60,646 nucleotides of DNA, taken from assembly GCA_021162425.1 (NCBI GenBank), contig JAGGYQ010000022.1, forward strand, positions 1 through 60,646, in the 5' to 3' direction. Shown piece by piece: positions 31,656 through 43,604 of the stretch. This stretch comes from Candidatus Aenigmatarchaeota archaeon. GTDB taxonomy: Archaea > Aenigmatarchaeota > Aenigmatarchaeia > QMZP01 > QMZT01. The notes beneath the pieces are model-generated. The model saw only the letters and a list, made by a program, of their open reading frames with translations. It was not told the DNA's origin and made no database searches. A program made the translations under genes and the position numbers. Every line of letters starts with the position of its first letter. The first letter of the stretch is position 1.

Positions 31656-34600
31656 ATGGAAAGTCAATTATTATACATGGATAGGGCTGATTTGAAAAAA
31701 ATTATAGTGTTGCTTTCCAGTCTTTTCATTCTTGGTATATATTTTGTTCTTCTGCCTGCTCCTGTGACGAGTTATGAGAGCACAATCCCTACTATTAGAA
31801 CAACGTTTCCTGTTAACAACGATTTGTCGGAAAAAGTTGGCAGAGAAACAATGGGTCTGGTGGTTGCCGGAGAGCCGATAAAAAAGGATGTGAACCTCAC
31901 GTTTAACTACCCGTTTCCTCTGGGTTTCGGCGAGGCGAACATAACTGCCACGGTGACCGATTCTTCTGGAAATGTTGTTTTTGAAAAAACACTATGGCTG
32001 ATACCGTTCCTCGAACGCTGGGGGATTGTGAAAAACAAAAAATATGTGTACAAGCCAGATTATTTCAATTTCAGCATCATTGTCAAGGGAGCGAACGTGA
32101 CATATGCACCAAAGAAATTCGAGGCTGTGGTGGTTCAGAGGTTGAGGGAGCCTGATGTGAATGATGAAAGCGACTGCAACGGAAAATGGAAAATATGGGG
32201 CAGGGTGATAAAGGGAAAAGAAGAAGCGCAGGTGAAAGACCATTATTGTTCAGGCCCGTGGGATTTTAATGAGCTCGGAATAGGTTACACATGCTCTAAC
32301 ATGGCTGGTTGGGAAGGAAGTGGCGGAGGCGGTGGAGAGACATGTTTCGGAGACGGCGAGCCTTGCCAAACAAACGAGGATTGTTGCCAAGGTTGTTTTT
32401 GTATCAGGGGCACTTGCCATTGTCCTGAACCTGAAGCGAGCTTCCTTCCTGGAACAAAAATATCTCTCCATCACGGCACAAAAAATATAGAATTCATCCG
32501 CACAGGGGACAAGGTTCTGTCTTTCGATAACGGGAAAATAGTGGTGAAGAAGGTTTCCTCTGTTCGGTCTCCTATCAGGACAGACCATTACTACGTTCTG
32601 CGAACCAAGAATAGAGAGGTTGAAGTCACAGAGAATCACGAATTTTATACACCCGAAGGTTTCAGGAAAGTCAGCGAAATAAATGTGGGAGACGATGTTT
32701 ATGTGCTGGAGGGAAATAAACTTGCAACCGAGAAAATAATATTTAAAAAAATCATACACCGCCCTGTGAATGTCTACGATTTCGAGGTAGAGGGAACGCA
32801 TACATTCTTCGCCAACGGATTCGCGGTGCATAATGATGCCTCTGTCGGTATAATCAAAGGTGCTTGGGACAACAACGGGAAGGCATGGGAATCATCTGTT
32901 CAAGAAAACACCCTGCTGTATTTCGAGGTTGGCGATAGCAAACACGTCCCGAACGAACCCGCTCCCAACAAAGGGATTGATGGCATAGAATGGAAAACTG
33001 CGCACTCGTGGAAGCTGGAGACATATATTCATCCTGCCAGAAGTGTTGGCTCAGAAGATTTCAGGATTTACCCGGACGATGGTGCAAGAATTTTTGTTTA
33101 CCATCTGAATCTGAACAACGGTGAATGGGAGCAAGTGTTCAATACGTCCTGCCTTTTGAGCGATAGATACGCACAAGGAAAGAGCACAGGCTGCGTGGTT
33201 AAAGGATTCAAAATTACCGATACAGGGGAAAAAAGCTGGTATAAATTTGATGTATACTTGTATAACGACCCGGGCGGAAGAACAGGAAGCGGCGAGGAAG
33301 ATACGAATCCGCTCGGTATACGCATAGAGGACAAACAGGCTACTGATAATTCTCTGTTCGACCTTTTCAGTTCTAAAGATAAAAGGGTGTGCATAAGCAG
33401 CGAAGCCCCCGGGGCCGATGGCGCAGAAATCAAGACAGTGGGAAGCGTTTTTGGAAACCAGGGTCTCGTTGAGGTCAGGGACCTGACAATGCCCAGCACA
33501 GATTTTGAACTTAAAAACCCAAAGTGCGGAGATGATGTGATATGCGATTTAAGGGCTGCGTGCGGGAGCGATGAGTACGAGGGTTTGGAAACCACAAAAT
33601 ATGGCTGGATAATAAATCACAGGATTTATCCTGAAAGCTGGGAAAAAAGAGAAACGGCTGTGAAGAGAAGGGGGTATATAGAGGCGAATGGGAAAAAAAT
33701 AAAATTCGACCCGTCCAGTTTGAAAAGAGCCAATCGTAGGCGTTTCATTCCTCCTGACGTGAAATATTCAGGTGGCATATACAAATGCAGGAAAAATTGG
33801 CCTGCATGGGAATATGAATGCAATGCAGGTGACAGATATTCGTACAAAAGAGGGTCGGACGAAATAAAATGTTGCTATGTTTCTGAGTTTGATATAAACC
33901 CCGATGATTCAATAACCCTGAACAATTACGAGTCGGGCTATGAATACATCATAAACTTCCTTCCCCCCAAGGGTTCCAAACTCTGCGCAATAGCGGAAAC
34001 AAAGTCAGGTTCCCCCCAAGAGATATACAAAGCACATTACACAAATCAGTTATGCGACACAAAAACAGGTGAAAACTGCTGCTACTGCAGGAAAGGTTAT
34101 GGGTGTAAACTTAACTGTCTGAACGAAAACGAGGAGCCAGGGTACTCGTTTGCCTTGCCGTTCGATACGTCAGGCCAGACATGGGAAATAAAAAATATTG
34201 GAATAGAAATTTTGCCTGAACCAGCAGGGGTTGTTGACCTCAATGCCGAAGGCAATGCAAAAGACGGGTGGAAAATTACAGCAAAAATCAGCGAATCTGC
34301 ACAAAATCTGCTTTACAGAAACTTCACAATCCCTATAAATCTTTACGACGACTTTGGAATCATTGCGCCTGAAAAGCACGGAAGATATAACCTGAAAATT
34401 AAGGTTACCTATGCAGGTCAGCCATCGTATGCGAGATACGAAAATCTGACAACATTTTACTCTGTTGGTTGCACAAAGGAAAACGAGTCAAGACTTTTTT
34501 ACAACGAGACTCTTTATCCCGGGACAAAAGGTATAGGTGCGTGTAAACCAGGCAAACAAATATGCCACGACCTCTCGAGGTATCCTGCATATGTCGATTT

Positions 34601-37600
34601 TGAGTGGGAATATGAAAATACTCATGACTATCCCGTTTACCCCACAAACGAAACCTGCAACGGGATAGACGACGACTGCAACGGGCTTGTAGACGATATT
34701 GGAGGGTTTGACTGGATAATAAACCAAATGGTCAGCACAGGGGTGTTCAGCCCATACAAGATAACAAAATGCGGTTGCTTCGAAACTCAACCATCCGTCG
34801 AAACCTGCAACGGGATAGACGACGACTGCGACGGAGTAATAGATAATAAAAAGAAAACAATATTCGTGAACACATGCGATGAATCTGTCATTAACTGCAC
34901 AAACCAAGGAAATCCTTACACCTTTTGCAAACAACTTTACAATTCCAGCCTGTGCGAACTCCGTGAGGTTGAAATAAACATCCCCAAAAATTTAACAATC
35001 AACACATGCACAGAAAAAGTCAGAAAGTGCATGGAAAATGAACACATAAAAAGGGTATCGTTTTTTGCAAAAGCCATGAAAACAAAATACACATACGATG
35101 AGTGCAAACACCTATATGATGATGTTTCATGCATTTTAGAGAATGTTTACATAAATGTTCTTGGCGACACATGCGCGTGTTCAAACGGCGGACAGCCGTC
35201 CGTCGAAACCTGCAACGGAATAGACGATGACTGCGACGGAATAATAGACGATGTCAGCAATCCAGAGACATGTGGCTGTTCATATTTGACAGATATAGCA
35301 GAAATTGAGGAAAACAAGAAAAACGGAGACTATTCATGCAACGGGATAGATGACGACTGCGACGGAATAATAGACGAAGACGCTGCTAATTGCGCCTGTG
35401 CGAGAAGACCGCCTGCGGAAGTAAGAAACATAAAAAATAAAGTCAGAGAGATGTGCGACGGGATAGACAACGATTGCGACGGGCTGGTGGATGAAGACTT
35501 CCCAGAGATAGGAAAGCCCTGTGGTTACGGGCTTTGCTCTGGAGGTGTTTATGTTTGCAATGTGCATGGCGATGAGGCCGTCTGTAACACCACGGTAAAT
35601 CCAGATGAAACATTCAGCGGCAACGCCATGAAACTGTCGCATGAAGAGGTATGCGACCTAAAAGATAATGATTGCGATTATTCCATAGACGAAGACTGTG
35701 AGTGCACACCAGAAGGAGCGGTTAAGGTTTGCGGCTATCAAAGCGGAATATATTACAGGGACAAACAGAATTTGGATAATGTGTGCAATGAAGTTATTGA
35801 AAAACTTAAGAAACTTATTACATGGGCAGAAGCCCCTGAAAATGTTAAATACAGGAGACTTATTACAGTGGAAAATACAGAAGATGTGTATTTGAAAAAT
35901 TATCCTGTTATGATTTCTCTAAACACAGCCATGCTCAAAAACTATGGGAGGGTGAGGAGAGACGGCGGTGATATTAGAATTGTTCCGGAAGGGGAAGAAA
36001 CATATTTGGATTGGGCAAACGCCACAAAATTCAACTGGCCCAAGACAGATATATGGTTCAGGGCAGATATACGACCTCACGAACTCAAGAAGTTTTATGT
36101 TTATTATGGTAACCCAACTGCAACATACAAACCAAAGCAGATTTCCGAAATATTAGGGATTCCGTATGAGAGAGGAGTGTTCCTTCTTTGCCACTTCGAT
36201 AACAGCTCAGCGTGCGAAGGCAACATGGTTCCAGAGCATGAGAAGAGGGCATATTTCACTTATGGTAAATATGACCTCGGCGTTGTTGTTAATGATTTGG
36301 GTGTGCTTTCATATCCGACCTCGGAGAACTTCAACAAGAACAGAGGAACAATTGAGGTATGGGTCAAACCAGATGACTTTGAGGAAACACACTATATTTT
36401 CTATTCTGAAGACTTCTATGGCAATCCGCAGTTTAAAATTTACTTTAACGCGAGCGGTCTTTTCTTTGATGTCTACGATAGGCAAGGTGATATGCACAGG
36501 GTCAACGGAAGCGGTCTCACCTTGGGTAGATGGGGGCACATCGCAGCCTCTTGGGACACACTTCATGGAATGAATCTCTACATAAATGGAAGACTGGTTG
36601 ATTCAAAGGAAATCACATGGAATATGAACGACATAGGACTTGATGTATATATTGGCTGTAACTCCACAGGCTCGGCAAGGTCTCCTGTAATGGACGAACT
36701 GGTTATCCGCAGCCAGATGTTAAGCGAGGAAAAGATAAGGACAGATATGAGATATTATGAACCTTCTGTTTTGCTTGGGCCAGAGGAAACTCTTAACCAG
36801 ACAAAGACGACATCGAGTAATATTGATATATTCAGGAAGTGTAACGAGATGCTTGAAAATGTAACGACATCTGGTGATGAGAGAAAGGCGACTATATTGA
36901 GCTTGTGCGATTCAGTAAGGATATGCAACAAAACAGACTTCCCCATTAATCCGATAAGCGAATGCACATTCGGTGTTCAGGAATGTTTGAATGGTGTGTG
37001 GGGCTCATGCTCGGGTGTCCAGCCAAAGACAGAGATATGCAATCAGAAAGACGACGACTGTAATGGTGTGGTGGATGATATCTTGTTCCCTGAGACATGC
37101 GCGTGTTCAAACGGCGGACAGCCGTCCGTCGAAACCTGCAACGGAATAGACGACGACTGCGACGGGATTGTGGATAACGTAATGGGTGGCAATTCTGTTG
37201 AAAGCACACATTGTGGATGCTTTAATCAAACAGTTAACATTACGCAGAGGCATGCAGAGCCAGAAGAAGCATGTAACGGAATTGATGACAATTGCAACGG
37301 AATAATAGACGAAGGTTTGGACAACTGCGCATGTGAAGGAACAGTTTTCAGCCCATATAATAATACATGGGCACAGGCAATATCCGTCGAAACCTGCAAC
37401 GGGATAGACGACGACTGCGATGGAGTGATAGATAATCCATGGCAAAAGAACGGTTCGCAAGCTACAAAGTTCAAATACCTTGGCGCTTCATGCAGTATGG
37501 TCAACAGCAGATGTGTGGGTGGCGTTTATGTTTGTAGCCTTGACGGAAAAAGCTTGGAATGCAACACAATGAGCGACAATGCGCTGGGTGGCGAAGACAA

Positions 37601-39161
37601 AAGACAACCAGAGGTCTGCAACGGGATAGACGACGATTGCGATGGAGTGATAGATAATTTATGGGGAACATATTCCAACAAATTCTGCGGCTGTTACAAC
37701 GGTGAGCCGAAAAAAGAAGAGATATGCAACGGAATAGATGACGACTGCGACGGAATAATAGATGATGGCCTTTCAAACTGTGGATGCTCGTTTGATACAA
37801 TTGTCAATGCAACGAATATAAACAGAATGGCCTCTTTGATAAACACAAAAAGGATGTCCGAAGAGGTATGTAACAACATAGATGACAATTGCGACGGTAT
37901 AATAGATAATGTCAACAAAACGCAGTCATGTTTTTGTTCAGGCGGGTTTGAAGGCAATCCGCTTAATAGGATAGAGTTTTGCAACGGGATAGACGACGAC
38001 TGCGACGGAATAATAGACGATGTCAGCAATCCAGAGACATGTGGCTGTTATCAGGGTGAACAGCCATCTGCAGAAGTGTGTGACGGGGTGGACAACGATT
38101 GCGATGGGCTGGTTGACGAGGATTGGCCAGAACTCGGGTCTGCATGTGGCTATGGCGCATGTAAAGGCGGTGTGTTCGTATGCTCGGATGACAAGCAAGG
38201 TGTTGTCTGTTCAACAGGGCCTGGCGGGCCCGAAGACAAATCCAGCGAGGAGATATGCGGGGATGGAATAGACAACGACTGTGACGGGGCGATAGACGAA
38301 TCATGCGAATGCGATGTCGTAGGAAAAACCAAGGAATGTGGAACAGATGTTGGCGAATGTAAAAAGGGTGTGCAGACATGCACGGATGACGGCTGGGGAC
38401 CGTGTGTAGGCTCGGTAGGGCCACAGCCAGAGGTCTGCGACGGAAAGGACAACGACTGCGATGGGGTGATAGATAATTCGCCCTATTGCGGATGCTACGG
38501 TGACAAGAACCCGGCCACCGAAATCTGCAACGGAATAGACGATGACTGCGACGGGATTGTTGATAACGTAAATGGTGGCTCCTCTGTGGAATCAACCAAG
38601 TGCGGTTGCTATGGCATGCAGTTCGGAAAGGGAGCAAAAACAGAAATATGCAACGGGATAGATGACGACTGCGACGGAACGATAGATAATGTTAAGGGCG
38701 GTTCATCTGTTGCAGCTACGCGATGCGCGTGCTATAATGGCGGACAGCCGTCCGTCGAAACCTGCAACGGAATAGACGATGACTGCGACGGAATAATAGA
38801 CGAGGATTGGCCAACGCTAGGCAAGCCGTGTGGAGAGGGCATATGTGCAGGTGTATATGTTTGTTCGGAGGATGGGAAGACAGTAGTATGTAATGGGGCA
38901 GAGCCTGAGGTCGAAATATGCGACGGAAAGGACAACGACTGCGACGGGGCGATTGACGAAGGTTGCTTTGGAGCCGGAGTGAGCAGTTGCGAAAACGGTG
39001 TGCAGGACGGGGACGAAGAGGGGGTTGACTGCGGTGGCACATGCCCGAATCCGTGTGCTCCTGTCAAGCAAATGCCCATTAGTGGAGAATGGATAATGGT
39101 ATTCATAGCGATAGTTGTAATAATCGTTATTCTGGGATTCGCTCTCATGTATTTCAAATAA
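31656..39161 (+). CDS. giant (2501 aa) doubly membrane-anchored extracellular multidomain protein
   Basis: N-terminal signal anchor 'IIVLLSSLFILGIYFVLL'. Then a Gly linker and Cys knot, a Hint domain, a PA14-like segment ('FRIYPDDGARIFV'), 6 CNGIDDDCDG repeats, DUF2341-like and LamG-like modules, and 15 more repeats. It ends with 'DCGGTCPNPC' and the C-terminal TM 'WIMVFIAIVVIIVILGFALMYF'. Confidence 0.85.
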   Translation: MESQLLYMDRADLKKIIVLLSSLFILGIYFVLLPAPVTSYESTIPTIRTTFPVNNDLSEKVGRETMGLVVAGEPIKKDVNLTFNYPFPLGFGEANITATVTDSSGNVVFEKTLWLIPFLERWGIVKNKKYVYKPDYFNFSIIVKGANVTYAPKKFEAVVVQRLREPDVNDESDCNGKWKIWGRVIKGKEEAQVKDHYCSGPWDFNELGIGYTCSNMAGWEGSGGGGGETCFGDGEPCQTNEDCCQGCFCIRGTCHCPEPEASFLPGTKISLHHGTKNIEFIRTGDKVLSFDNGKIVVKKVSSVRSPIRTDHYYVLRTKNREVEVTENHEFYTPEGFRKVSEINVGDDVYVLEGNKLATEKIIFKKIIHRPVNVYDFEVEGTHTFFANGFAVHNDASVGIIKGAWDNNGKAWESSVQENTLLYFEVGDSKHVPNEPAPNKGIDGIEWKTAHSWKLETYIHPARSVGSEDFRIYPDDGARIFVYHLNLNNGEWEQVFNTSCLLSDRYAQGKSTGCVVKGFKITDTGEKSWYKFDVYLYNDPGGRTGSGEEDTNPLGIRIEDKQATDNSLFDLFSSKDKRVCISSEAPGADGAEIKTVGSVFGNQGLVEVRDLTMPSTDFELKNPKCGDDVICDLRAACGSDEYEGLETTKYGWIINHRIYPESWEKRETAVKRRGYIEANGKKIKFDPSSLKRANRRRFIPPDVKYSGGIYKCRKNWPAWEYECNAGDRYSYKRGSDEIKCCYVSEFDINPDDSITLNNYESGYEYIINFLPPKGSKLCAIAETKSGSPQEIYKAHYTNQLCDTKTGENCCYCRKGYGCKLNCLNENEEPGYSFALPFDTSGQTWEIKNIGIEILPEPAGVVDLNAEGNAKDGWKITAKISESAQNLLYRNFTIPINLYDDFGIIAPEKHGRYNLKIKVTYAGQPSYARYENLTTFYSVGCTKENESRLFYNETLYPGTKGIGACKPGKQICHDLSRYPAYVDFEWEYENTHDYPVYPTNETCNGIDDDCNGLVDDIGGFDWIINQMVSTGVFSPYKITKCGCFETQPSVETCNGIDDDCDGVIDNKKKTIFVNTCDESVINCTNQGNPYTFCKQLYNSSLCELREVEINIPKNLTINTCTEKVRKCMENEHIKRVSFFAKAMKTKYTYDECKHLYDDVSCILENVYINVLGDTCACSNGGQPSVETCNGIDDDCDGIIDDVSNPETCGCSYLTDIAEIEENKKNGDYSCNGIDDDCDGIIDEDAANCACARRPPAEVRNIKNKVREMCDGIDNDCDGLVDEDFPEIGKPCGYGLCSGGVYVCNVHGDEAVCNTTVNPDETFSGNAMKLSHEEVCDLKDNDCDYSIDEDCECTPEGAVKVCGYQSGIYYRDKQNLDNVCNEVIEKLKKLITWAEAPENVKYRRLITVENTEDVYLKNYPVMISLNTAMLKNYGRVRRDGGDIRIVPEGEETYLDWANATKFNWPKTDIWFRADIRPHELKKFYVYYGNPTATYKPKQISEILGIPYERGVFLLCHFDNSSACEGNMVPEHEKRAYFTYGKYDLGVVVNDLGVLSYPTSENFNKNRGTIEVWVKPDDFEETHYIFYSEDFYGNPQFKIYFNASGLFFDVYDRQGDMHRVNGSGLTLGRWGHIAASWDTLHGMNLYINGRLVDSKEITWNMNDIGLDVYIGCNSTGSARSPVMDELVIRSQMLSEEKIRTDMRYYEPSVLLGPEETLNQTKTTSSNIDIFRKCNEMLENVTTSGDERKATILSLCDSVRICNKTDFPINPISECTFGVQECLNGVWGSCSGVQPKTEICNQKDDDCNGVVDDILFPETCACSNGGQPSVETCNGIDDDCDGIVDNVMGGNSVESTHCGCFNQTVNITQRHAEPEEACNGIDDNCNGIIDEGLDNCACEGTVFSPYNNTWAQAISVETCNGIDDDCDGVIDNPWQKNGSQATKFKYLGASCSMVNSRCVGGVYVCSLDGKSLECNTMSDNALGGEDKRQPEVCNGIDDDCDGVIDNLWGTYSNKFCGCYNGEPKKEEICNGIDDDCDGIIDDGLSNCGCSFDTIVNATNINRMASLINTKRMSEEVCNNIDDNCDGIIDNVNKTQSCFCSGGFEGNPLNRIEFCNGIDDDCDGIIDDVSNPETCGCYQGEQPSAEVCDGVDNDCDGLVDEDWPELGSACGYGACKGGVFVCSDDKQGVVCSTGPGGPEDKSSEEICGDGIDNDCDGAIDESCECDVVGKTKECGTDVGECKKGVQTCTDDGWGPCVGSVGPQPEVCDGKDNDCDGVIDNSPYCGCYGDKNPATEICNGIDDDCDGIVDNVNGGSSVESTKCGCYGMQFGKGAKTEICNGIDDDCDGTIDNVKGGSSVAATRCACYNGGQPSVETCNGIDDDCDGIIDEDWPTLGKPCGEGICAGVYVCSEDGKTVVCNGAEPEVEICDGKDNDCDGAIDEGCFGAGVSSCENGVQDGDEEGVDCGGTCPNPCAPVKQMPISGEWIMVFIAIVVIIVILGFALMYFK
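32439..32834 (+). other. mini Hint / bacterial-intein-like (BIL) domain, aa 262-393 of the giant protein
   Basis: Block A 'SFLPGTKI', block B 'TENH' (TxxH), block F 'VYDFEVEGTHTFFANG', block G 'FAVHN'. No endonuclease insert. The residue after HN is Asp. Confidence 0.7.
34650..35700 (+). repeat. coding repeat array 1: 6 copies of C-[ND]-G-x-D-[DN]-[DN]-C-[DN]-G (MopE-like putative metal-binding motif)
   Basis: Counted in the translated ORF (ETCNGIDDDCNGLVDD ... EVCDLKDNDCDYSIDED). Confidence 0.8.
35169..35280 (+). repeat. hub of perfect intragenic DNA repeats (matches three distant segments)
   Basis: 35169-35227 equals 37095-37153 (59/59). 35187-35251 equals 38739-38803 (65/65). 35229-35280 equals 37998-38049 (52/52). 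All compared base by base. Confidence 0.9.
35850..36745 (+). other. DUF2341-like plus LamG/concanavalin-like module of the giant protein
   Basis: 'YRRLITVENTEDVYLKNYPVMISL...DGGDIRIV...FYVYYGNP' is DUF2341-like. 'RGTIEVWVKPDD...GRWGHIAASWD...LYINGRLV...MDELVIRS' is LamG-like. Confidence 0.6.
37095..37153 (+). repeat. 59-bp perfect copy of 35169-35227
   Basis: Base-by-base comparison. The flanking bases differ. Confidence 0.9.
37998..38049 (+). repeat. 52-bp perfect copy of 35229-35280
   Basis: Base-by-base comparison. Both copies encode DCDGIIDDVSNPETCGC. Confidence 0.9.
38739..38803 (+). repeat. 65-bp perfect copy of 35187-35251
   Basis: Base-by-base comparison. Both copies encode GGQPSVETCNGIDDDCDGIID. 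Confidence 0.9.
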
Positions 39162-43477: not shown

Positions 43478-43604
43478 CGCCCCGGTAGTCTAGTCCGGTC
43501 AAGGATACCGGCCTTTCGAGTGGGCTTCGCCCTGACTTGAAAGGTTCGATGGCGAGAGCCGATGAAGACAGCCGAAGACCCGGGTTCAAATCCCGGCCGG
43601 GGCA
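43478..43604 (+). tRNA. tRNA-Glu (anticodon TTC) with a 52-nt canonical (37/38) intron at 43518-43569
   Basis: Acceptor GCCCCGG/CCGGGGC plus A73. Anticodon loop CTTTCG|A. BHB central helix CUUU (43512-15) / GAAG (43564-67), with 3-nt bulges CGA and ACA. T arm CCGGG-TTCAAAT-CCCGG. Confidence 0.9.

Follow-up and report, generated by a model that had tools for sequence, protein, structure and literature searches.

A cysteine-free, bacterial-intein-like mini Hint domain with putative autoprocessing function in a giant surface protein of an Aenigmatarchaeota archaeon

The stretch of DNA analysed here (the window) comprises 60,646 nucleotides, i.e. positions 1 to 60,646 of contig JAGGYQ010000022.1 from the assembly GCA_021162425.1 of a Candidatus Aenigmatarchaeota archaeon, and harbours on its forward strand a gene (31656..39161) for a secreted giant protein of 2501 amino acids (aa) with a C-terminal anchor. 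Close to the N-terminus of this protein, aa 262-393 (32439..32834) form a complete, cysteine-free mini Hint domain of 132 aa, which by the sequence and structure criteria tried is a member of the A-type bacterial-intein-like (BIL) domains, i.e. of the Pfam family PT-HINT. With a probability of about 55 %, by analogy with characterized relatives, this domain represents an A-type-BIL-like autoprocessing element, which is located in a linker near the cell-distal N-terminal end of a C-terminally anchored DPANN surface protein and the main outcome of which would be cleavage.

The codons, read directly, bear out the original prediction made from this DNA that all Hint blocks reside within these 132 aa and that an endonuclease insert is absent. 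The translation of 32439-32900 runs SFLPGTKI...VTENH...VYDFEVEGTHTFFANGFAVHN, then DASVG; aa 262-393 read SFLPGTKISL...EVEVTENHEF...VNVYDFEVEGTHTFFANGFAVHN. Block A opens with Ser262 at position 1 (codon AGC, 32439..32441), the predicted nucleophile for an N-to-O acyl shift. Block B is represented by the TxxH motif Thr325-Glu-Asn-His328 (32628..32639) and block F by VYDFEVEGTH (32772..32801), which contains Asp375 at F:4 (32778-32780) and His382 (32799-32801). The domain ends with block G, His392-Asn393 (CAT AAT, 32829..32834), the presumptive site of Asn cyclisation, and is followed at +1 by the non-nucleophilic Asp394 (GAT, 32835..32837).

The resemblance of aa 262-393 to Hint models is far beyond chance. 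The domain alone scored 50.3 bits (E=3.9e-13) with PT-HINT (PF07591; 44.2 bits for the whole protein, cutoff 27.7), 37.1 bits with Intein_splicing (cutoff 35.8) and 34.0 bits with Hint_2 (cutoff 28.4), and stayed with 26.9 bits just below the cutoff (29.7) of the Hedgehog-type Hint model (PF01079). The profile search with Hint, Hint_2 and intein models that had been proposed for this domain was thus positive for Hint_2 and Intein_splicing and, narrowly, negative for Hint. The NCBIfam models of the N-terminal and C-terminal intein splicing regions (the latter TIGR01443, intein_Cterm) likewise matched above their cutoffs. Among sequences in the PDB, the best match was the BIL domain of Clostridium thermocellum (2LWY, E=4.5e-10), followed by the Tetrahymena BUBL BIL2 domain and then by mini-inteins. 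An AlphaFold2 model of the Hint domain, computed with five related copies, is all-beta with a mean pLDDT of 91.6. Foldseek against the PDB retrieved 2LWY as top match (TM-scores 0.85/0.87, root mean square deviation 1.6 A) and BIL2 (6Y75/6TMM) as second; inteins ranked after these two BILs and Hedgehog structures (6TYY, 1AT0) lower, the probability being 1.00 for BILs, inteins and the Hedgehog Hint (Hog) domain alike. Since 2LWY itself scores 178.5 bits on PT-HINT, this Pfam family practically amounts to that of the A-type BILs, and the window domain is a divergent member of it. The placement among Hint families rests on best hits and model scores; on these, the view of a bacterial-intein-like mini Hint rather than a canonical intein held, BILs ranking above inteins and Hedgehog.

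A-type BILs are defined by a C-terminal His-Asn and the lack of a +1 nucleophile, B-type BILs by the lack of block G (PMC4031507). The window domain combines the PT-HINT match above threshold with a C-terminal HN and the absence of Cys, Ser or Thr at +1, and it is located, without homing endonuclease, in a variable inter-domain linker of a lineage-restricted secreted protein, being present in some orthologues and absent from others. Its end, FAVHN, is matched by TIGR01443 and excludes the B-type. The host is archaeal rather than bacterial, as the BIL name would imply, which is a matter of naming and not of mechanism. The C. thermocellum BIL 2LWY shares the size of a mini Hint (~130-140 aa) without endonuclease, blocks A, B, F and G, the terminal HN, the missing +1 nucleophile, the Pfam family and a host protein that is secreted and not conserved, in which the domain occupies a variable part. 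In contrast to 2LWY, the window domain belongs to a DPANN archaeon and lies close to the N-terminal end of an anchored protein of 2501 aa, is only ~28 % identical, reaches 50 instead of 178 bits on PT-HINT, and carries Ser instead of Cys at position 1 (and would hence form an oxyester, the domain being free of Cys).

Other Hint families fit less well. Canonical mini-inteins (Npu and Ssp DnaB, gp41-1, Mtu RecA) have the fold, all splicing blocks, Asp F:4 and the His residues of blocks B, F and G in common with the window domain, which, however, reaches a higher score with PT-HINT than with intein models. A class 1 intein is further contradicted by Asp394 at +1, by the lack of a +1 nucleophile throughout the orthologues, and by insertion into the variable linker of a fast-evolving, lineage-restricted surface protein instead of a replication or repair enzyme. 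Hog domains (1AT0, 6TYY) likewise have the Hint fold and occur in secreted proteins, from which an N-terminal module is released via an acyl intermediate. They differ, however, in their Gly-Cys junction, the lack of HN and Asn cyclisation, the sterol-recognition region and the C-terminal position, as opposed to the Ala-Ser junction, the terminal HN, the 2100 aa following the domain and the PF01079 score below cutoff found here. The BIL2 domain of Tetrahymena thermophila BUBL (6Y75/6TMM), second-best match by sequence as well as structure, does not perform classical splicing and uses the acyl intermediate at the N-junction; it possesses Cys1 and ubiquitin-like flanks, forms isopeptides with Lys and is activated by Zn2+ (PMC8616854), whereas the window domain has Ser1, no ubiquitin-like flank and Asp at +1. 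Finally, the pretoxin HINT of polymorphic toxins (PMC3482391) belongs to the same Pfam family, is of the autoproteolytic Hint type and likewise occurs in large secreted filament-like repeat proteins. It is, however, located just upstream of the variable C-terminal toxin which it releases (PMC3482391), whereas the window Hint, at aa 262-393 of 2501, is followed by ~2100 aa, which comprise repeats, a Laminin_G_3 domain and a transmembrane anchor. No toxin domain was found by Pfam in the window protein and no recognisable immunity gene downstream; a polymorphic-toxin interpretation was rejected on architecture.

Orthologues were collected by an exhaustive HMMER search with residues 1-700 and an alignment-based scan of GTDB species genomes. 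Seven further Hint copies were found at the same position in orthologous proteins from Aenigmatarchaeota-type genomes (P0002, P0005, the third Hint of P0001, and loci L003-L006), which together with the window copy make up a set of eight; two of the orthologues, L005 (2414 aa) and L006 (2409 aa), are Hint-bearing and full-length. NCBI labels orthologues of the window protein as "Hint domain-containing protein". Ser1, the Thr of block B, Asp F:4, the His of block F and the terminal His-Asn are invariant (8/8), and the His of block B is present in seven of the eight copies, so that the residues for both half-reactions can with confidence be called present and conserved on the basis of these alignments. 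The flanking residues are, in this set, unconstrained: A, M, I, V, F, R, S and Q occur at -1, and D, Q, Q, A, R, R, E and D at +1. Hence none of the eight copies has Cys, Ser or Thr at +1, in agreement with the predicted absence of this nucleophile.

The deviating block B belongs to L006 (uncultured archaeon CAZTJN010000011.1), the Hint of which (residues 278-409) reads TENQ and retains Ser1, Asp F:4 and HN. The numbering of this copy refers to the stop-to-stop frame opening at L006 nt 5170, with the start codon 2 codons in. Possibly, TENQ marks a naturally occurring variant in which the chemistry at the N-junction is impaired.

Within the N-terminal region, conservation is highest in the Hint, with identities of 56-70 % compared to 43-45 % in the flanks. 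Nonsynonymous divergence (dN, Nei-Gojobori) amounts to 0.23-0.35 in the Hint, roughly half of the 0.54-0.61 in the flanking modules; synonymous sites are saturated in both alike. Trees of the Hint and of the N-terminal module (N-module) share the groups L005+L006, P0002+L003 and P0001+P0005; in the N-module tree, but not in that of the Hint, L004 joins the last pair. Between Hint and N-module, pairwise identities correlate with r=0.63. According to these comparisons, the Hint is old in the host gene and vertically inherited, with purifying selection focused on the catalytic residues. A recent horizontal arrival of the Hint as cause of its higher conservation was rejected in view of the saturated synonymous sites and the agreement between Hint and host trees. 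Conservation and co-divergence count against a relic as well as against a sequencing artefact.

Upstream of the Hint, the host protein starts with a hydrophobic segment (aa 16-37, 31701..31766) preceded by a basic KK. It is followed by an N-terminal "tip" module of ~175 aa (aa ~41-215, 31776..32300), delimited by orthologue alignments, which ends with YCSGPWDF and carries 4 N-glycosylation sequons. A linker of variable length among orthologues (aa 216-261, 32301..32438), first Gly-rich and then Cys-rich, leads directly into the Hint. The N-termini of the window protein and of all orthologues comprise a basic n-region, an h-region of 15-22 residues and small residues before the mature part, and look like Sec signal peptides rather than anchors. 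The "TM-anchored" N-terminal module of the original prediction is therefore doubtful: with the signal peptide removed, the module upstream of the Hint would form the unattached distal end of the mature protein, and a cut at the N-junction would free this tip module instead of leaving it membrane-bound. At the other end, a predicted C-terminal transmembrane helix (aa 2479-2500, 39090..39155; assigned by hydrophobicity) is followed by the terminal Lys. An extracellular setting is indicated by the signal-like N-terminus, this helix, the 149 Cys residues of the host protein, the conserved N-glycosylation sequons and the lack of Cys in the Hint. Eight of the Cys residues fall into the 46 residues just upstream of the Hint; Ser1 in a Cys-free Hint looks like an adaptation to such a disulfide-rich extracellular context.

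The archaeal origin of this extracellular giant protein, also part of the original prediction, is corroborated by the relatives of the protein and by a tRNA of the window. Close relatives of the N-terminal 700 aa were found only in Candidatus Aenigmatarchaeota metagenome-assembled genomes (MAGs), and two of these relatives share upstream neighbours with the window, namely a glutamate dehydrogenase gene and a thioredoxin or thioredoxin-reductase gene. Additionally, an Rfam tRNA at 43479-43604 (+) (51 bits), missed by ARAGORN, implies by its length of 126 nt the presence of an intron and fits an archaeal genome.

The orthologous Hints are embedded in a wider clade, for which 259 complete copies were evaluated in the best 150 representatives of the HMMER search. 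Position 1 is Cys in 245 and Ser in 14 of these copies, the terminal HN is present in all but one (258/259), and block F:4 is Asn instead of Asp in 95 %. The flanks are constrained, with Lys at +1 in 218 (84 %) and Gly at -1 in 164 copies (63 %); Cys, Ser or Thr occupy +1 in merely 8. Judged by these positions, the window orthogroup (Ser1, Asp F:4, neither Lys+1 nor Gly-1, no Cys) is a distinct offshoot. Tandem arrays of two to five Hints occur in 72 proteins of the same 150; in many proteins, the copies are arranged head-to-tail and separated only by K-G-G(-G). A recurrent architecture consists of a signal peptide, GGG|C...HN|KGG|C...HN|KGG..., a Gly-rich segment, a transmembrane helix and 1-2 Tim44-like domains. 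If every tandem Hint excised itself, almost nothing extracellular would be left of such a protein. Examples are the proteins P0004, P0009-P0013 and P0016-P0024 and the loci L008 (Aenigmatarchaeota) and L012/L013/L041 (Micrarchaeia), next to loci L024-L039 from Lentisphaerae, Verrucomicrobia, Kiritimatiellaeota, Elusimicrobia and Acidobacteria. Overall, genome hits were obtained in the archaeal Aenigmatarchaeota, Micrarchaeota and Nanoarchaeota as well as in the bacterial Patescibacteria (Shapirobacteria, Roizmanbacteria), Chloroflexi, Lentisphaerae, Verrucomicrobia, Kiritimatiellaeota, Elusimicrobia, Omnitrophota and others. In its conservation, the Lys at +1 is reminiscent of BIL2, which forms isopeptides with Lys (PMC8616854), and it might play the role of an amine nucleophile. 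That the window Hint is an offshoot of a clade whose real job is acyl transfer, to the +1 Lys in the clade and to an external nucleophile here, is an idea to which we attach very little credence.

That the reactions of the window Hint occur, which bond is cut and what the cut would effect biologically, we infer from its relatives as follows. After Sec export and folding, Ser262 would attack the carbonyl of Ala261, with Thr325/His328 and Asp375 as helpers, and the N-to-O acyl shift would yield an oxyester. Independently, Asn393 would cyclise with participation of His392 and His382, thereby breaking the Asn393-Asp394 bond. Since Cys, Ser or Thr is missing at +1, the classical branched intermediate cannot form, and cleavage at one or both junctions would be the main outcome to be expected. 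Such a cut would detach the tip module together with the Cys-rich knot (~220 aa), release a free Hint and leave the stalk of ~2100 aa on the cell. Ligation of the flanks by aminolysis would be possible as a minor reaction.

Several considerations favour cleavage over ligation. An oxyester, as expected with Ser1, reacts much less readily with amines than a thioester does. At -1, the residue varies freely and is frequently bulky or beta-branched (Ile, Val, Phe); with such a residue next to an oxyester, aminolytic ligation should, by general acyl-transfer chemistry, be less favoured than hydrolysis. The Gly-1/Lys+1 flanks of the sister clade are absent. Tested A-type BILs, moreover, yield mainly cleavage products, although ligation of the flanks by aminolysis is possible without a +1 nucleophile (PMC4031507, PMC5874633, PMC7765530). 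Taken as a rule, the predicted unlikelihood of splicing goes too far, even though cleavage dominates in A-type BILs (PMC4031507).

Several findings weigh against autoprocessing with cleavage as its main outcome. Three orthologues are devoid of the Hint, i.e. P0015, the fragment P0008 and, at full length, P0006 (2443 aa). Here the first strand of the downstream domain follows the Cys-rich linker without interruption, the junction reading ...GTCTEYERTYQIDRSSWDD... in P0006 compared to ...GTCHCPEPEA[Hint]DASVGIIKGAWDN... in the window protein. The family evidently works as an uninterrupted chain, so that cleavage is not essential to it. Another orthologue, P0001 (L002 1855-4505, Aenigmatarchaeota), carries three Hints of two subtypes in one linker: Hints 1 and 2 (Cys1, Asn F:4) are located 3 residues apart in the Gly-rich part, with Lys and Ala at +1, and Hint 3 is the orthologous Ser1/Asp-F:4 copy after the Cys-rich part. 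If one cut suffices, a triple Hint would be redundant. Furthermore, the His to Gln exchange in block B of L006 affects a residue proposed to assist the N-junction. As to the two modules to be separated, neither the tip nor the downstream module had a significant Pfam match in the window protein and 10-11 orthologue segments, profile searches against PDB sequences yielded no relatives, and an AlphaFold2 model of the Hint-less P0006 (aa 26-610, 13-row alignment) reached a pLDDT of only 42.8. Judging from the sequences at hand, the linker may hold 0, 1 or 3 Hints, all of these numbers being tolerated by the host-protein family, and in P0001 Hint cassettes seem to have entered Gly-rich linkers repeatedly, with no endonuclease involved. 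This 0/1/3 pattern is explained at least as well by a neutral self-splicing passenger.

According to the latter explanation, which we regard as rather unlikely, the ester at Ser262 and cyclisation of Asn393 would be followed by attack of the freed alpha-amine of Asp394 on the ester, whereby the Hint would be removed and the flanks ligated. The mature protein would then equal its Hint-less orthologues, and the Hint would be a neutral element kept intact only since a defective copy would harm the host protein. Its presence or absence exactly at an inter-domain linker agrees well with this, as does the N-module tree, in which Hint-less sequences adjoin or nest among Hint-bearing ones and which thus indicates clean loss or gain. 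Three Hints in one orthologue and the 2-5 tandem copies of related proteins are to be expected of self-removing elements, strong purifying selection on catalytic residues is to be expected for inteins, and A-type BILs are able to splice without a +1 nucleophile (PMC4031507). The excess of cleavage over splicing in tested A-type BILs, the sluggish Ser1 oxyester, the freely varying -1 residue and the missing Gly-1/Lys+1 flanks argue against it, i.e. the very points which favour cleavage. Loss of processing altogether, the Hint fold being kept as a compact beta-rich linker spacer or inactive relic, is clearly less probable: the absent +1 nucleophile, the lost block B His of L006 and the dispensability of the Hint in some orthologues would fit, but a spacer does not need Ser1, TxxH, Asp F:4, the block F His or HN, which are (nearly) invariant at divergences with saturated synonymous sites, and the Hint has roughly half the dN of its flanks.

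Likewise improbable, in our estimate slightly more so, is a Hedgehog- or BUBL-like transfer, in which the Ser262 oxyester would be resolved by a nucleophile on a glycan, a lipid, an envelope protein or a component of the host-cell surface, and the C-terminus of the tip module would become covalently coupled to the acceptor molecule. There is precedent in Hedgehog, the N-domain of which is moved onto cholesterol (PMC5874633), and in Tetrahymena BIL2, the second-best structural match, which conjugates its upstream domain to Lys epsilon-amines (PMC8616854). Moreover, selection acts on Ser1 and block B, although HN would be needed for C-terminal cleavage only, and the protein belongs to the surface of a lineage whose members presumably live in attachment to hosts. 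Between Hint and next domain, however, a sterol-recognition-like or other adaptor region is absent, oxyesters donate acyl groups poorly, the anchored stalk would lose its connection to the coupled module unless the latter were held non-covalently, and Hint-less orthologues exist. The option, left open originally, of a class 1 intein in which a sequencing or assembly error has erased a Cys, Ser or Thr codon at +1 would agree with the presence of all intein blocks and with the matches to the N- and C-terminal intein models. It is already refuted and carries practically no weight: two or more base changes separate GAT from every codon for Cys, Ser or Thr, which a single miscalled base does not account for, the seven other orthologous sequences also have no nucleophile at +1, such residues are rare at this position in the related domains (8/259, as above), and the host, a variable secreted protein, offers no conserved site for intein insertion.

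Non-intein Hints as such are not new for archaea, given the above NCBI label of the orthologues and the listing of HINT peptidases for euryarchaeal toxin systems in 2012 (PMC3482391). In the open-access literature, no description was found of Hint or BIL domains in Aenigmatarchaeota, other DPANN archaea or Patescibacteria, of BIL-type domains in DPANN surface proteins or of Gly-1/Lys+1 tandem arrays. The window Hint is real and well-preserved, and modestly unusual in its Ser1, Cys-free chemistry and its host. Supposedly "bacterial" intein-like domains are accordingly a maintained and selected feature of giant DPANN surface proteins. The DPANN cell envelope is presumed to mediate attachment to the host, and to our knowledge almost nothing has been reported on its maturation; a self-cutting or self-coupling module beside the distal tip of a ~2500-aa protein would provide a concrete handle on maturation or shedding. 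Should acyl transfer apply after all, the Ser262 oxyester would couple the tip module to the envelope or the host cell and serve an episymbiont as a chemical attachment device. For the question of what BIL domains serve, which is not known to have been settled even in bacteria, one and the same linker offers a natural comparison series, being occupied by 0, 1 or 3 Hints depending on the orthologue. The Ser1, Cys-free Hint may also interest protein engineers, as it would be a redox-insensitive cleavage module for disulfide-rich extracellular contexts.

Downstream of the Hint, a conserved domain of ~250 aa (aa 394-~640, 32835..33575) was delimited by orthologue and junction alignments and is recognisable by the motifs LYFE.GD..VPNEP, YPDDGARI and YLYNDPGGR. 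Judging by the YPDDGARI motif, it may be PA14-like. By sequence comparison, the two modules flanking the Hint are lineage-specific domains of Aenigmatarchaeota surface proteins. The stalk (34656..38948) contains ~17-21 Cys-rich CNGIDDDCDG repeats (counted by regular expression), which match Pfam Cu-binding_MopE with 247 bits in total, and encloses DUF2341 and a Laminin_G_3 domain (36318-36737). The CNGIDDDCDG motifs are interspersed with longer, near-identical repeat units, e.g. SNGGQPSVETCNGIDDDCDG; this part of the gene may be susceptible to recombination as well as to collapse during assembly.

In the chromosome-level Aenigmatarchaeota MAG CP070809.1, a run of N's (L001 11229-11347) cuts the orthologous gene a few codons past the Hint. 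P0002 had the appearance of a gene truncated right behind its Hint, an interpretation rejected due to this run of N's in scaffold CP070809. The "partial" annotations in the host-protein family (P0002 and probably others) are evidently assembly artefacts, the repetitive giant gene having remained unassembled.

The host gene, the length of which compares well with that of the full-length orthologues P0006, L005 and L006 (2409-2443 aa), is neighboured by an open reading frame (ORF) for 170 aa without Pfam matches and by a gene for a radical SAM enzyme. An antisense ORF for 193 aa (32250-32831, -) overlaps nearly the whole Hint-coding segment and is probably spurious, given the strong evidence for the gene on the + strand.

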